A stretch of 63,844 nucleotides of DNA, filler included, from Neolecta irregularis DAH-3 (lineage: Eukaryota): the NCBI GenBank assembly GCA_001929475.1. It is 21 parts of 21 records of this genome, joined end to end, with 100 filler letters (N's around TTAATTAATTAA, not from the genome) between each part and the next. Parts side by side here need not be neighbours in the genome. Positions count along the whole stretch, not along the records: positions 47,683 to 55,027 come from LXFE01001294.1; positions 55,128 to 56,532 come from LXFE01001298.1; positions 56,633 to 59,258 come from LXFE01001301.1; positions 59,359 to 61,296 come from LXFE01001302.1; positions 61,397 to 63,844 come from LXFE01001303.1; 16 more parts are not named here. The stretch is one strand, 5' to 3'. Shown piece by piece: positions 49,576-62,775 of this stretch; the stretch's first letter is position 1; each line of letters opens with the position of its first letter. The notes beneath the pieces are model-generated. The model worked only from the letters and a program-made list of their open reading frames with translations. It did not search any database and had not been told where the DNA came from. Both the position numbers and the translations under genes were made by a program.

Positions 49576-50998
49576 ATGTTGTCGATTTTGTTTTTCATCG
49601 CGCTATGCGGAAAGCTGTCCTTTGCAACCTTGTCTCTCAATCAATTCAATAGAGTTGCTGTGGTTGAGCAGATGGCAGCAAATTGCAATAACTTGTACGA
49701 GGCAATTCATAGTAGTGTTGTCTACATTGGGCAGGATATGAAAACCTTGGAATCCCTAACTCCAGAAGAAAGATGTGCTGAAGAATGTGTCAATGCCCAA
49801 TCTTTCTGCAAATCATTCGTTGTGGTATATGTTAAAGCAAGCATACTCAGCTGCTACACGTTTGCTTTTGGATCAGCAAATATCCTGCCCCACTTTCATA
49901 AACGCGAGGACTACCTAAGGTCAACATCAAGAACTACGTATGGTGGGGTTTAAAGAGTGACCTGATGTTTTAGTGTCTCCTCTAGCCCTTGTCTCTTACG
50001 GTCACTATACGAGTATGAAAGGGATTTAAAAAGTTATCTGATGTTCTAGCATCAACATTGAGCCAGATTATGTAACCTCTGTACTCGAAATAACTCGTGA
50101 TTTCATCGATCTTGGTTATGATAAAGCCAAATTTATAAATAAAGTCGGGCATTACTGCAGACCTGATGTACACAGCCTCGCAGATAATCAAGGGAATGAA
50201 GCTAAATATCTGACGAATTTTATCGATACTTGCAGAGCAGCTGCATTAAAGGACAGAGCTAACTTCCCTACAATCTCGAATTCTGAACAACCAACTGACG
50301 AATATCTCGATCGAAAGTCGGTCATTTCCGCACTCAAGTCATGGATTTCTCCAAACCCTCAATACTCGACAAATGTTGATCAACTCGTATTGATGTTTCT
50401 CAAGCTTTACGGACCTAGTCAACATGCCTATTCTTCATCCGAACAGTATTACTTTACTATGAATCAATCTGGTAACAGGCTCTCTCGTGCAATTGTCGTT
50501 TCATTCGGGCCAGGTCACTATATTACGATAACTTCAGGATATACTGCTTATGATACGATCAAATACATATCTGCAGATGGTACATTTGCCAAAAAGGTCG
50601 AGAGAGCACAGTTCGCTGCTTCCCTATTCCGACGGTTCTCGGGCAAGCTAGGCGGTGGAACGACGGGGCTTCGTTCCCAACACTTTACCGGGAAACATCA
50701 CATAGATTGTGTTGGTATAACTCGGGAGCCTGGCATCTCTGTACCCCAGCTTCAGCAATTGACAGCGATGGCAGTGGTCAATGACATTATATCCACATTA
50801 TACGATGGACCTGGAATACTTCTTGAGCAACGCTGGACCCGCGATTTGGTTACATTCGTATTATCATGGGTTTACAAGGTTCGTCAGAGCGATGTCAACT
50901 TTGAAGCCGAACGCGACCTTGAAAGTCGTGGCCCTCGAATCATGAAAAGTTTTTTTCCAGGCTCTGCCTCTATGGTTGATATCATTACTCAAAGCTAA
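49576..50998 (+). CDS. Secreted PAN/Apple-like module protein with C-terminal globular domain, 2 introns
   Basis: Signal peptide MLSILFFIALCGKLSFA; CAEECVNAQSFCKSFVVV...CYTF; splicing two short introns between ~49940 and ~50050 joins the 49576 and 50390 ORFs. Confidence 0.72.
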
Positions 50999-51121
50999 CG
51001 CCACACGTAAAATAGATGTAGTTCGATAGACAATATTGTATTCCAATGTATTTTCAGGTTAATGAGTATTGATTTTCTATGTTTATTCACCTCTAAGTCG
51101 CAATCCGATTGCCGGTGTATG

Positions 51122-51420
51122 CAGTGTTGGCTATAGGCCATGGGCTTAGCCCGGCCCATTAAAAGCCCATGGGCATACATGGGCCGAGACGGGCTTTTTC
51201 ACGTGATATTAAATAATACTATGAAGCCCTTCTCCCATGTCTCCTCTCTAAACCGCAGGCGGACTGGCCTCGCCTGCCCGCCCCGCCTGCCACCCTTGCC
51301 AGTCCATCTCTCCAGCCTCTTCCATCTCATCCTCCTCGTGTTCTTTACGCCCTCCTCGCCTGCTTGTCTCGCCCGCCTCTCCCGTCTATCTCTCCTGCCT
51401 CTCCCGCCAGTCTCAAGCAG
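51122..51420 (+). mobile_element. CAGTGTTG-terminated repeat with GGCCCATGGG subterminal repeats and pyrimidine array
   Basis: Shared motifs with 43192, 10533 and 59740-60490. Confidence 0.65.
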
Positions 51421-52611
51421 CAGTGCACGGCCAGGGCGAGTAGCGCATCGGCAACCGCAGAGGCAACGCTGCGCCATGCTGCCACCGAAGAGTACAACCA
51501 CGGGTTCGCGATCAGCGCCTTCCCTCTACGTACTAATTTTCCGAGTTAATGACTTGGTGAACATGAGAGACTAACACCCGAGAAGCGAGCATAAATAGCT
51601 AGTCAGCTTAATACAAACCTTTAACCCTCGCTCGCCTGCCTCACCCAATCGCTTCCTCTCACTTCGCTGCCCATCACCTTCCTGTACCGCTGCCCCACAC
51701 CTGCGCATGGCTGCTTTGCAGCCTTGGTCAACCACCTGTTGCCGCAGCATACACTGCTAGTGCACAACCTGCACGGTCCGCTGCTGTGCCTACCGCCTGC
51801 CGCAGAAACCCGCCTGCTCAAGCTGCGTTCCTCTGCCAGCACCTGCACTGCTTCTATCTGTCCCTGCTTGCTGCTGATGCCCGCTGACCTGTCAACCCCT
51901 GCCCATCGCCTCCCTCCACCTCGATCTAACTATCCGCAATCCTTGCCCTCTGCAGTCCCAGGTGGAATGTCCTGCCTGCCACCCTCTACCTCCCATCTTA
52001 CTTCCCCATTGCCCCGCTTCTCCACATGCTGCCCATCATCCCTTTCCCACTCGCATCCCTCATTCTCTCTGTCGCCTGCTGCCATTACTGTGCAGTCACC
52101 CCCGCCCACCTCCATGTTATGTGTTATACTCATTACATCCTGTGTGGCCTATTCGCTCCTGACAATAAGTGACCTGTGATATCAAGATATATACTTAGTA
52201 TTCTACAATACTCCATAGTTCTCTACTGCAACACAGTGCACTGCAGTTTACCAGCCTCCCAGGAAGTAGAGATAAATAGACAAAGAGAAAAGGAAATGGG
52301 GTACGCCAGTATCTTTCTAGGCGGGCCAGAATGGTGAAGGATGACGCAGGGAGGGGGGAGGAAGGTTGGGTAGTTTCTCCTACGAAATACTAATATTTTG
52401 TTGACCGTGCCACAAGATCTTGGGCATAAACTTCAGACCAGCACCAGTCACAGGTTTCATATCACAAATAAGTAGGAAAACAGAAGCAAAACATATGGAA
52501 GCAAAGGGATGTATTTTCAAAGTCTGATGAGAGACTATGCAAACATGTTTACGAATATATCCTACCTATTCATTCACATTGTTGCTCATACTGCTAACAC
52601 GTTTTTTCAGC

Positions 52612-60490: not shown

Positions 60491-61170
60491 GGTGGTAAAA
60501 GGCATGTGGTAACATTCACTACAGTACTATTGCCTACACTATTCTCGCCTACTCTAACTATGAGGCATTGCACCGCCCATTGCACACACTGCCCCACACT
60601 GCACTGTGCCTCGACTGTCTATTCCATCTCCCGTCCCTAGCCTGCACCTGTTTGCATGAACAATTGGCTGCATGCGCTGTGGTATAAGGGTTCAGCGTCA
60701 GGGGTCAGATTCTGCCTTCCCCCTCTCCAGCCTCCGCCCCTCTCCAATGGTTACCCTCGTCCCCACAAAGGCCTCCCTGCCTGGCCCCGCCATCGCCATC
60801 CGGCACACTGCTACAGAACCTGCCGCCGCTGAATCGTTACTCTTCGCGGCCGCTCTGAACTGAGGCTCCGCGTTCATCGAGACCCCTTCGCCCCTGGAGC
60901 CGCCTCCCTCGTCCTCGCCACCTCCCTGCGCTGCTGCCCTAGCTCTCCGTGAAGGCATATACACCGACTCAGGCTCTGCGACACCACGCTCGCTCGCGAC
61001 GCCTTCTCCCGCCGCCGTCTACAGCCGCCCGAGCTGCACTGCGCGAGGCCGCATGGCTCCCCCGCTCCCGCAGCGCCGCAGCCACGCAGGCGTCGAGACC
61101 GGGGCCGCGCTCGCCCACATGTTTCGCGGATGCGCTTCCACAGTCTTCGATCGCTCGCCTGCCCGAACTG

Positions 61171-61296
61171 CTGCCCTCACTTCTCCTCCCAGATGCCCCC
61201 GATTCCCTCACCCATGACCGCTACGACCCACCCCAGATCTTCGTCAAGGCCTAAGACTACGGCCTCTACTCCTCCACAGACGACTACCCAGACCAG
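61171..61296 (+). pseudogene. Duplicated, internally deleted fragment of the C2H2 TF gene at 16128
   Basis: Aligns to 16319-16387 and 16497-16562; CAA>TAA stop; last 44 nt identical. Confidence 0.85.
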
Positions 61297-61396
61297 NNNN
61301 NNNNNNNNNNNNNNNNNNNNNNNNNNNNNNNNNNNNNNNNTTAATTAATTAANNNNNNNNNNNNNNNNNNNNNNNNNNNNNNNNNNNNNNNNNNNN

Positions 61397-62775
61397 ATGC
61401 GAACGTTATTTGCACTGCATCTTTTCTCGACGATCATTTCGAGAAGTCTAATGATGTTTTCGACAAAGATGTATTTTTTGAGAATCCAGTAGACTCATGG
61501 TTGCGGGGCGGAAGGATAACTCAAGATCTTGCAACATCCTTATGTGCAGAGGAATGCAACCAAAATCCGAATATTTGCAAGTCCTTCGTCATATTGGAGA
61601 GCTCGAGCATGGGAACATGGGAATTTGTCACCTCCGTAAAAGGCTACCCGGACTCGGGGGGCGAATTCGAATGTCTGAAATTTGGCACCCCTTCATCAAA
61701 GATTGTTACGCATCCAGCCTTTGGACTCCGTACTTTGAAAGTTGTGCGAGCAGTGTACAAGTAAGCACCTGCGATTGAATGGAAAGTCTGATATTCAAGT
61801 ATTCTTGAACAACGAACATTTTCTCTCAAAGATATTTCTCGTGATATGAAAAATAAATCAGGAGAAGATTGGGCGAAGGATATTTTAAAAAGATATGGGG
61901 GATCTTCAGTATTCTCTCCGGACGCCATTGAAGAATTCTACCTGCCTCTTTTACTCTTGTGCAGGATCATTGCGATGGATGCCACCCAACCAATATCATT
62001 TAATTTTGCGAATAATATTCTTTTCGATGGTCAAGAAACGGGACACAACGAAAATGAAGAGCGACCGCGCAAAAAACGCAAAGTGAATCAGGAAGCCGGA
62101 GAAAAGACGTCTACTCAAATGATTAACACAGACCTAGCTTCATGGACAGTTCCTTCGAGAGCATGCTCTTCACCAGAGTGCTTTCAAGCTATGGCGTTGA
62201 CTTTTCTACAAATACTCGGCGGGAATATTCGTGGAGGAATTCCCACTCGTTTTAATGAGGAAAATCGGGATTTAATTTTTGAAGAAGGGGATCTGCACCT
62301 ACTCGTTGGTTTCCCTCGCCTTGGAGAGTATATTATAATATGGGACCCTCCAAATGACGCCGATGAAACTGTAGCACAGATATATGCAGCCAATGCAAAC
62401 GGGGGCCACGCCCCGATGGCGGAGAATATTAACAAGTATTATGAAATCTTTTCAGGATTACCGAATGGTCTTGGCCACACATATCTTAAAGATTTTGATG
62501 ATTATGACTCTTTCAAAGATGATGATGTGGAAGTGGTGATAACAAAAGTTGTTCTACAGGTGGCAGACATATTACTTAGGCCCCATCAAGCTTACGTTGC
62601 GACATTTTTTGAACTGACAAGAGCTACACCATTCATTCGAGATCTCATGGCAATCGTGGTCTTTAACGACTATGAGAAGAATCTGAAATCCAGTTCAGCT
62701 CGATCTCAAATAAGCAACAGCCGATTACGACCACATTACATGGATACAGTCATTCTAACCAACAATAATACTTGA
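61397..62775 (+). CDS. PAN/Apple-like module protein with NLS and C-terminal domain, 5' truncated
   Basis: CAEECNQNPNICKSFVIL...C; intron ~61761-61799 at the same position as in the 49576 gene; PRKKRKV. Confidence 0.72.

Follow-up and report, generated by a model that had tools for sequence, protein, structure and literature searches.

Neolecta irregularis carries two distinct lineage-specific gene pairs with divergent, possibly PAN/apple-like cysteine modules

The window analyzed here, a stretch of 63,844 nucleotides from Neolecta irregularis DAH-3 made up of 21 short contigs linked by N44-TTAATTAATTAA-N44 filler, appears to contain two separate gene pairs with four-cysteine modules, while comparison of the sequences does not establish a single family of four. 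The explanation we favor, with a probability of roughly 0.55, is that the genes fall into two small, distinct, lineage-specific groups of a Neolecta-like early-diverging ascomycete, and that the first group (g1/g2) encodes extracellular proteins with a divergent PAN/apple-like module. The GC content, the short introns (32-41 nt) and the one homologue found, from Neolecta irregularis, agree with such an organism. The layout of g1 and g2 would comprise a signal peptide (seen in g1), a PAN/apple-like domain, a phase-2 intron and an orphan domain some 320 aa long. Their module, with its four-Cys core (six Cys in g1), would be a disulfide-locked binder of a glycan or protein, and the proteins would act outside the cell, at the wall, the matrix or the surface of a partner organism; the PAN fold, the secretion and the binding role are what we infer. 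Most likely, g1 and g2 are duplicates of one whole gene whose C-termini then diverged very fast, the alternative being replacement of the 3' exon. The second group (g3/g4) would be a tandem pair with its own four-Cys module and linker, in which g3 retains the module and a Lys-rich tail, and g4 is a decaying, still transcribed duplicate.

Gene models and kinship within the pairs

An earlier reading based on the sequence only had claimed four genes on three contigs that carry the module. All four stretches are present, on contigs 17 (47683-55027), 21 (61397-63844) and 9 (19345-25864), and one of the modules is a relic. We call the gene at 49576 g1, the gene at 61397 g2, and the minus-strand pair on contig 9 g3 and g4 (Table 1). 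The pattern C-x3-C-x5/6-C...C lies in long open frames at 49774 (+), 61543 (+) and 25848 (-), and a tblastn search within the window returned the four module copies only. The copies are located at contig ends, adjoining repeats.

Table 1. Features of the four genes, in positions of the window
Feature	Position	Strand	Description and basis
g1, complete model (contig 17)	49576..50998	+	449 aa; ORFs and predicted splicing
g1 exons	49576-49937, 49974-50012, 50050-50998	+	predicted from sequence
g1 introns	49938-49973, 50013-50049	+	36 and 37 nt; predicted from sequence
g1 signal-peptide-like N-terminus	49576..49626	+	inspection of translation
g1 four-Cys core	49774..49851	+	C-x3-C-x6-C-x13-C
g1 C-terminal domain	50050..50995	+	315 aa, orphan
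g2 (contig 21)	61399..62775	+	5' end cut by contig end
g2 exons	61399-61760, 61800-62775	+	predicted from sequence
g2 intron	61761-61799	+	39 nt, phase 2; predicted from sequence
g2 four-Cys core	61543..61674	+	C-x3-C-x6-C-x31-C
g2 C-terminal part	61800..62772	+	~324 aa, orphan
g3 (contig 9)	25303..25863	-	5' end cut by contig end
g3 exons	25863-25574, 25537-25303	-	
g3 intron	25573-25538	-	36 nt, phase 2; spliced in cDNA-like contig
g3 four-Cys core	25848-25774	-	followed by acidic linker, then Lys-rich tail
g4, present ORF (contig 9)	24287..25027	-	233 aa, spliced
g4 module relic	24958..25146	-	GLQWC...GAC..., other frame
Open frame past g4 stop	23999..24286	-	95 codons; same frame, directly past TGA

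The predicted intron sizes of g1 agree with the range of 32-41 nt found for the 15 cDNA-supported introns on contig 9; were the first intron instead to span 49920-49985 (66 nt), the protein would have 439 aa. Its leader of about 17 residues has a hydrophobic core and small residues preceding the likely cut, and the signal peptide that had been claimed for this gene is thus upheld as a signal-peptide-like N-terminus, judged by inspection only. Two extra Cys, at residue 37 and in exon 2, flank the core. The g1 protein is absent from a collection of 5.8 billion proteins, and these genes apparently lack annotation.

Within the module core, g1 and g2 share 12 of 30 residues, none of 5000 shuffles attained the score of the pair, and BLASTP pairs them with E-values of 4e-5 (exons) and 4e-4 (full length). 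As had been proposed, both have a predicted GT-AG phase-2 intron at the module boundary, falling between ..LY-D and I in g1 (37 nt) and between ..VY-N and I in g2 (39 nt). The two genes are paralogues. Past the intron, their C-termini have no detectable likeness: hhalign gives only weak collinear motifs (E 0.085, 138 columns), and the score of the first 35 residues was reached by 276 of 5000 shuffles. These weak collinear motifs fit one diverged ancestral gene better than an exon swap.

The core of g3 has spacings of x3, x5 and x13 between its four Cys. Similarity between g3 and g4 lies mainly in the linker, and the shared EEDERTLVTLDIT/EQDDATLVPLDMT that had been reported for them is confirmed on the spliced models (E 9e-6), while the KYSL/KYTL part of the similarity quoted with it proves to be intron sequence in cDNA-like contigs. 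Both genes are transcribed and spliced, each having a phase-2 intron in the corresponding place that is removed in cDNA-like contigs (25538-25573 in g3, 24753-24791 in g4), and they are paralogues whose sequences part right after this intron. Exon 1 of g3 occurs a second time in the genome, in a copy that differs at 24 codons, 21 of them non-synonymously (dN/dS 1.5, not significant), with all four Cys kept in both copies; neutral decay fits these copies as well as fast adaptive change does.

The g4 gene is a degenerate copy. Its present ORF runs from an ATG within what was once the module to an in-frame TGA (24287-24289); the intron at 24791-24753 is spliced out in a cDNA-like contig, the remainder being contiguous, and 23594-24752 forms a single unspliced piece there. 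In the relic, Cys1 has become Gly and no ATG precedes the module remnant. A frameshift separates the relic from the downstream ORF, and no intron spans the shift in the cDNA-like contig. Frameshift, lost Cys and in-frame stop are all found in spliced cDNA-like contigs, which match the window at 100% identity, and the 95-codon frame is probably the severed end of a formerly longer g4 ORF. No leader was seen in g4.

Across the pairs, mutual similarity falls to the level of shuffled sequences. The scores of g1 and g2 against the g3 module were reached by 3662 and 3049 of 5000 shuffles, respectively, and an HMM comparison of g1/g2 with g3 by 3174 of 5000 (BLASTP E 1.5). The proposal of one modular family of four genes is therefore not sustained, as detectable similarity is confined to the pairs.

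Affinity of the module to the PAN/apple superfamily

The sequence-only reading had assigned the module to PAN/Apple. When trimmed modules were compared with Pfam, the sole match was PAN_1 (PF00024) for g1 (E 0.087) and g2 (E 0.068-0.074), or PAN_4 (PF14295) for g3 (E 0.044). These matches stay below the curated gathering cut-offs, with 13.1 and 13.5 bits for g1 and g2 against 21.4 for PAN_1, and 14.3 bits for g3 against 27 for PAN_4. The g4 relic had no Pfam match, and four other stretches that share this Cys spacing, taken as controls, gave no match to PAN. Among PDB sequences, a profile of three modules gave two matches only, both to the PAN domain of HGF (E 0.68 and 0.76), while an earlier profile search and a search with g3 alone returned no PAN entry. 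Language-model neighbours of the g2 module in a protein atlas point the same way, with PAN clusters nearest (0.92) and the ten best family-bearing matches all within one clan.

The AF2 model of the g2 N-terminus is of low reliability (pLDDT 41.2); its predicted order of a strand, a helix bearing C-x3-C and further strands would fit PAN, a fold in which a helix packs against an antiparallel sheet and two nested disulfides lock the structure. Foldseek gave no match at E <= 0.001 with this model. In VIA, PAN/apple domains made up six of the best 50 matches among 48,161 chains (Z 3.1-3.5), all from HGF, MIC4 or plasminogen, and ranked level with small alpha/beta folds unrelated to PAN, which reached a Z of up to 4.9. 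The four core Cys that PAN requires are present in g1, g2 and g3 and incomplete in g4, which has Gly in place of Cys1 and a frameshift. The spacing in g1, g2 and g3 fits the core cysteines of HGF (70, 74, 84 and 96; C-x3-C...C...C) as given in an excerpt of PMC9249922. Four weak lines concur on PAN, namely the sole Pfam matches, the only matches of the three-module profile in the PDB, the nearest atlas neighbours and the recurrence of PAN/apple domains in VIA; every one of these signals is below significance, with a model of pLDDT ~41. We regard a PAN/apple-like module in g1, g2 and g3 as weakly supported.

What the module shares with the PAN/apple superfamily (HGF N-domain, plasminogen, the apple domains of factor XI/prekallikrein, Toxoplasma MIC4) is the four-Cys core, the Cys-hydrophobic strands and the C-x3-C in a predicted helix; a likely extracellular setting would fit as well. 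It differs in the 31-residue insert between Cys3 and Cys4 of g2, in the g4 copy that lacks Cys1 and is frameshifted, and in partner domains that match nothing known. In oomycetes, CBEL-type proteins reportedly combine CBM1 with PAN. According to excerpts of PMC2409186, PAN domains (PF00024) occur in secretomes of ascomycetes and filamentous fungi, joined to other domains and proposed to bind glycans or proteins. Like these fungal and oomycete secretome proteins, the genes described here seem to encode secreted modular proteins with PAN joined to another domain; unlike them, their modules do not pass the Pfam threshold and their partners are orphans instead of known domains. We found no description of such a PAN-orphan family in Taphrinomycotina in the papers surveyed.

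It could also be that the module is not PAN at all, and that g1/g2 and g3/g4 carry unrelated novel disulfide motifs whose Cys spacing is convergent or due to chance. Bare Cys spacing is indeed not rare in the window, in which the three-Cys pattern occurs 18 times over six frames compared to 3.4 +/- 1.7 in shuffles. Together with the shuffle-level comparisons across pairs, the sub-threshold scores and the failure to recover the fold, this count favors such a reading. Against it, three kinds of search gave PAN only, no control did, and PAN/apple domains recur among the best 50 VIA matches. We consider it unlikely. Many of the 18 matches are in low-complexity, GC-rich frames.

Orphan C-terminal domains and rival explanations

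The C-terminal domains are orphans. The C-domain of g1 has a single relative, NEOLI_003911, a hypothetical protein of Neolecta irregularis DAH-3 (E 2.3e-38, 99% of the length, 40% identity or 46% in the alignment), with the blocks GPGHYITIT, FLKLYGP and FVLSW in common; searching 1.84 billion representatives with a profile added no other match over the domain. Both proteins have this domain and a signal-like N-terminus; g1 carries the Cys module, in place of which NEOLI_003911 has some 50 leader residues free of Cys. No relatives were found for the C-terminal parts of g2 (0 of 1130 candidates at E <= 0.1) and g4, three of the four orphan parts searched are without any relative, and no C-terminus matched a Pfam family at E <= 0.001, the matches obtained being at chance level. 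The earlier description of alternative C-termini agrees with these results, as the g1 and g2 tails are not detectably alike, g3 and g4 part after their intron, and the relative of the g1 tail lacks the module.

The sequence-only reading had gone further, to a polymorphic effector- or toxin-like system in which various cargo domains are fused to a shuffled module for binding or uptake. With exon exchange as its mechanism and a host or competitor as its target, such a system would account for C-termini that are unlike in g1 and g2 despite a common module and intron, for the complete divergence of g3 and g4 right past their intron, for the g1-type domain that follows a signal peptide without the module in NEOLI_003911, and for the mostly non-synonymous changes between the g3 exon 1 copies with their four Cys kept. 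In addition, the low-confidence model of the g1 C-domain yields matches to the Ulp1/SENP-like fold of the bacterial injected effectors XopD and NopD (see below). However, the C-termini gave no match to any family of toxins, enzymes or effectors, each pair has only two C-termini, g4 is decayed, and sequence comparison does not connect the two pairs. The weak collinear motifs past the g1/g2 intron also speak against it, as does the surrounding sequence, in which no small cognate gene stands out beside g1 (no ORF of at least 125 aa in the 1.9 kb upstream). We judge this explanation rather improbable, and the claim of a polymorphic system finds no support. Most of the frames might instead be decaying or non-functional lineage-specific ORFs of repeat-rich, poorly assembled regions, without present function. 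This would suit the lesions of g4, the orphan parts without relatives, a dN/dS of g3 copies compatible with neutrality, and the position of the copies beside repeats at contig ends. Yet g1 keeps an unbroken frame of 449 codons across three exons and has 40-46% identity to an annotated paralogue (315 aa), g3 and g4 are transcribed and spliced, and both g3 copies retain the four Cys. We regard general decay as very improbable.

If the module of the favored explanation is truly PAN/apple, this binding fold extends to an early-diverging multicellular member of Taphrinomycotina, in a form missed by standard annotation. Its pairing with orphan, fast-changing C-domains would offer a modest test case of the way in which extracellular proteins peculiar to one lineage are assembled and disappear at the borders of introns; present evidence does not reveal a new system of toxins or effectors.

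With the model of the g1 C-domain (pLDDT 40.7), 12 of the best 50 VIA matches were Ulp1/SENP-like (Z 3.2-4.3; best match overall Z 5.2), and Foldseek gave four such matches; the matched structure entries we take to be assigned to clan CE. Besides these low-confidence fold matches, the domain resembles Ulp1/SENP-like proteins (clan CE, Peptidase_C48) in a His that opens a strand and is followed by Asp residues, with His156, Asp168 and Asp176 invariant between g1 and NEOLI_003911. It departs from them in that the Pfam family Peptidase_C48 gave no match to the pieces of g1, g2, g4 or NEOLI_003911 even at E <= 10, and in the lack of a conserved Cys after the His. The His-Asp-Cys triad of clan CE, in that order, was not recovered in the g1-type domain, since no downstream Cys is conserved between g1 and NEOLI_003911. 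As a long shot, g1-type proteins may be secreted two-part proteins whose divergent PAN/apple module attaches to a glycan or protein, either on another cell or in the fungus's own matrix, and is joined to a fast-evolving Ulp1/SENP-like domain without the usual catalytic Cys. Acting as pseudo-enzymes or through a new active site, they would then be the fungal equivalent of the CE-clan effectors of bacteria, the module having been gained and lost among paralogues at the conserved phase-2 intron. In a pairwise MAFFT alignment of g1 and g2, which has no statistical support, g2 has Glu where g1 has His.

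Two pairs of module-bearing genes

The sequence-only reading had described four genes of the window, g1 and g2 on contigs 17 and 21 and g3 and g4 on contig 9, as one modular family whose copies resemble each other. The sequence features of the four stretches are real, and the mutual similarity holds within the pair g1/g2, whose module cores (CAEEC..CKSFV..) match each other with a BLASTP E value of 4e-5 on the exons and 4e-4 at full length, none of 5000 shuffles reaching the score. Across the pairs, however, the similarity is lost: the g3 module compares with that of g1 or g2 no better than composition-matched shuffles do (3662, 3049 and 3174 of 5000 reach the score). 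This argues, at the level of sequence, for two paralogue pairs that are unrelated to each other, one copy being a relic, and a family of four is not demonstrated. The C-x3-C-x5/6-C spacing itself has 18 matches over all six frames of the window, against 3.4 ± 1.7 in shuffles, and many of these matches sit in GC-rich low-complexity frames. Low-complexity tracts, CT-rich and GC-rich, open long spurious frames at three places (see table); those at 2223-2500 and 59960-60480 are 68-76% alike, and the CT-rich tract beside g1 was recognised by eye only.

The window is not one locus but a chain of 21 separate contigs of 1.1-7.3 kb each, joined by 20 linkers of the form N44-TTAATTAATTAA-N44, so that distance and order between contigs are meaningless. 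Contigs 5 and 6 probably do abut in the genome, given that 57 bases at the end of the one are identical to the start of the other. Window GC is ~38-55% and the introns of its genes are very short; the published N. irregularis assembly is given, in an excerpt of its description, as 14.5 Mb with an N50 of 16 kb and 44% GC (PMC5309816).

For g1, we favour a first intron of 36 nt over an alternative of 66 nt, which would give a protein of 439 aa, because the 15 introns of contig 9 with cDNA-like support are 32-41 nt long and because the 3' end of the shorter intron resembles that of intron 2 (..CTGATGTTYTAG). The predicted introns at the module boundary follow LY-D|I in g1 and VY-N|I in g2 and are phase 2 in both, so that the common phase-2 intron claimed for this pair is borne out in the predicted splice models. 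As a sign of common origin for all four genes, a phase-2 intron after [YF]-[DN] was rejected, since 4 of the 15 confirmed contig 9 introns follow CAA.

Coordinates of the contigs, gene models, splice evidence and repeats (window positions)
Feature	Positions	Strand	Remarks
First linker	1541-1640		19 more follow
Contig 5 end / contig 6 start	9137-9193 / 9294-9350		identical
Contig 9	19345-25864		holds g3 (5' end cut) and g4
Contig 17	47683-55027		holds g1
Contig 21	61397-63844		holds g2, 5' end cut off by contig end
g1	start ATG 49576; exons 49576-49937, 49974-50012, 50050-50998	+	predicted, 449 aa
g1 C-domain, fold search	50423-50995	+	
g2	exons 61399-61760, 61800-62775	+	predicted spliced reading
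g3 first exon, compared with run X1	25566-25856	-	
g3 intron	25573-25538	-	X2-spliced, after YAY-N
g4 intron	24791-24753	-	X2-spliced, after HAF-N
g4 ORF start (ATG)	25027	-	within former module
g3 stop codon side onwards	25537-25146	-	unspliced in X2
g4 frameshift region	24792-25078	-	unspliced in X2
g4 in-frame TGA region	23594-24752	-	unspliced in X2
X2 joint	21661-21694		GC..AG as aligned
X2 joint	22064-22097		GA..AG as aligned
X2 contig over g4 and protein-kinase gene	22395-25078		
Low-complexity tracts	2223-2500; 51200-52200; 59960-60480		
Contig 19 repeat pair	56982-57137 / 59109-59258		156 bp, 88% identical
Inverted repeat	62974-63035 / 63783-63844		62 bp, 93.5% identical
Dispersed repeat	63260-63426 / 33955-34130		170 bp, 82% identical

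Splicing and decay on contig 9

Sequencing run X2 is recorded as 'DNA?'. Its contigs on contig 9 are identical in sequence to the window and skip 15 stretches of 32-41 nt; the run thus behaves as spliced cDNA. Thirteen of the skipped stretches have CT..AC ends on the plus strand, equivalent to GT..AG for minus-strand genes, and the boundaries of the two joints with non-GT donors may be ambiguous. On the spliced models, the likeness between g3 and g4 pointed out earlier is retained (E 9e-6), but its KYSL/KYTL portion turns out to be intron sequence rather than protein. The introns concerned, both phase 2, occupy the same position of the linker common to the two genes.

Three X2 pieces are unspliced, running from the stop codon side of g3 towards g4, over the g4 frameshift region and over the in-frame TGA of g4, which indicates that g3 and g4 are separate genes and that the defects of g4 are not spliced away. 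A single gene comprising g3 and g4 with a 175-nt intron was ruled out by the first of these pieces, and short introns repairing the frameshift and the TGA by the other two. The present g4 ORF starts inside the former module and has no leader; the relic of the module lies upstream of it in a different frame and carries Gly at the position of the first Cys, whose absence had been correctly noted, and 95 further codons are open in the same frame after the TGA. In our view, the most fitting account of g4 is a duplicate that is transcribed while it decays. Downstream of it on contig 9 are ordinary BRO1-domain and protein-kinase genes. A single X2 contig spans g4 and the adjoining protein-kinase gene, reflecting either overlapping transcripts of adjacent genes or a merge by the assembler.

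In another sequencing run, X1, a further version of the g3 first exon is found at similar depth, differing at 29 of 291 bases (~10% divergence). Its reading frame is without stops and keeps all four Cys, and contig 9 probably ends at g3 because this duplicate exists. The 24 codons that differ comprise 3 synonymous and 21 non-synonymous changes, giving a dN/dS of 1.5 that does not differ from 1 (Fisher p 0.35), so the divergence fits fast adaptive change or neutral drift alike.

Possible kinship of the module with PAN/apple domains

The module had been identified as PAN/Apple-like, and several independent kinds of test lean the same way, but every score is sub-threshold. When the trimmed modules were compared with Pfam, the sole row was PAN_1 for g1 (E 0.087) and g2 (E 0.068) and PAN_4 for g3 (E 0.044), in each case covering the C-x3-C..C part of the profile, and no PAN row appeared for four control stretches of the window with the same Cys spacing. 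A profile of three modules had just two matches among PDB sequences, at E 0.68 and 0.76, and both are the N (PAN) domain of HGF; a profile of the g1 and g2 modules returned a nanobody and ribosomal protein L3-like proteins, and g3 alone LysM receptor kinases and a transporter, with no PAN domain in either search. The Cys spacing of the module matches that of the four cysteines (70, 74, 84 and 96) named as strictly conserved in HGF in an excerpt of PMC9249922.

In the protein atlas, the g2 N-terminus adjoins PAN clusters (0.92), and its ten best family-bearing matches all belong to one clan, an outcome shared by a third of shuffled proteins. The AF2 model of this N-terminus is poor (pLDDT 41.2); the order predicted in it, a helix with C-x3-C followed by strands, is that of PAN. 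By analogy with the HGF disulfides 70-96 and 74-84, the core of the module would pair Cys1 with Cys4 and Cys2 with Cys3. Searched with Foldseek, this model had no match at E <= 0.001, and a Foldseek-independent fold search placed six PAN/apple structures (three of HGF, two of MIC4 and plasminogen) among the best 50 of 48,161 chains, at Z 3.1-3.5 with the best unrelated row at 4.9. No single test is significant, and the concordance of independent kinds of test makes a PAN/apple relationship plausible but sub-threshold. In our estimate, the chance of the g1/g2 module being a divergent member of the PAN/apple domains is about two in three, and for g3 the odds are about even. Because the scores lie below the curated cut-offs, we term the module PAN-like rather than filing it as a PAN member.

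Divergent C-terminal parts and their surroundings

That the modules are joined to alternative C-termini stands as an observation: the C-parts of g1 and g2 compare at a BLASTP E value of 0.63, and their local score is matched or exceeded by 287 of 500 shuffles, their HMM score by 144 of 2000. These C-termini might have arisen by exon replacement or by runaway divergence of one ancestral gene. We lean towards divergence, because the two C-parts are of similar length and weak collinear motifs continue past the intron, which speaks against replacement. The motifs (ITRD/ISRD, CRAAAL/CRIIAM, SWxxP, FLKLYG/FLQILGG, GHYITI/GEYIIIW) form a chain of 138 columns in hhalign (E 0.085); over the first 35 residues past the intron the likeness is marginal (score reached by 276 of 5000 shuffles), and a local score at least as high as that of P0001, a relative of g1, against the g2 C-part came up in 22 of 500 shuffles. 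The g4 ORF resembles none of the other C-domains (hhalign E 0.56; BLASTP not significant; HMM score reached in 1054 of 2000 shuffles).

Database searches with the four genes brought up a single relative, P0001, the Neolecta irregularis DAH-3 hypothetical protein NEOLI_003911, which is also the only relative of the g1 C-domain (315 aa; E 2.3e-38, 40% identity, 46% in the alignment). It has a signal-like leader followed by a Cys-free spacer where g1 carries the module, so that the g1-type C-domain exists with and without it. A profile of the g1 C-domain and P0001, searched against 1.84 billion representatives, gave nothing new over the domain; it returned P0001 itself and P0002, which matches the P0001 leader only. 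Relatives were found neither for the g2 C-part (0 of 1130 candidates) nor for the g4 ORF (0 of 102), and neither has a Pfam family.

The AF2 model of the g1 C-domain is likewise poor (pLDDT 40.7). Searched with Foldseek, it had no match at E <= 0.001, with four Ulp1/SENP-like rows above that value, and in the wide fold search 12 of the best 50 rows were Ulp1/SENP-like (Z 3.2-4.3): SENP1, 3, 5 and 7, NEDP1, the de-sumoylating protease 5lnb, XopD, NopD, ASFV pS273R, and the deubiquitinase domains of CidB, SdeA and OtDUB. We take all of these entries to belong to clan CE. One neighbouring atlas cluster (score 0.80) has Peptidase_C48 on 15% of its members, and in the sequence Asp residues come after a GHYITI strand. 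The Peptidase_C48 profile does not match even at E <= 10. His156, Asp168 and Asp176 are invariant between g1 and P0001, and past these residues no Cys is conserved between the two. At most, the domain may have a CE-like fold that lacks the usual nucleophile, which we regard as a lead rather than a finding.

For the polymorphic toxin- or effector-like system proposed earlier we found no positive evidence, as the C-parts of g2 and g4 match no Pfam family and no partner or protective gene is apparent close to the four genes. Most likely, the genes would encode fast-evolving, lineage-specific proteins, putatively extracellular, built on a PAN-like and presumably binding module. PAN modules are already known from fungal secretomes, according to an excerpt of PMC2409186, and in the literature searched we found no description of a PAN-domain family of this kind in Neolecta.

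Flanking g1 are low-complexity CT-rich DNA and sequence that lacks long ORFs. Short repeats lie 3' of g2, among them the inverted pair and the first copy of the dispersed repeat, and may be remnants of a small mobile element. The repeat pair of contig 19 lies inside Ser/Glu-rich open frames and may be part of the other modular family alluded to in the sequence-only reading, and contig 18 carries an RFA3 gene.
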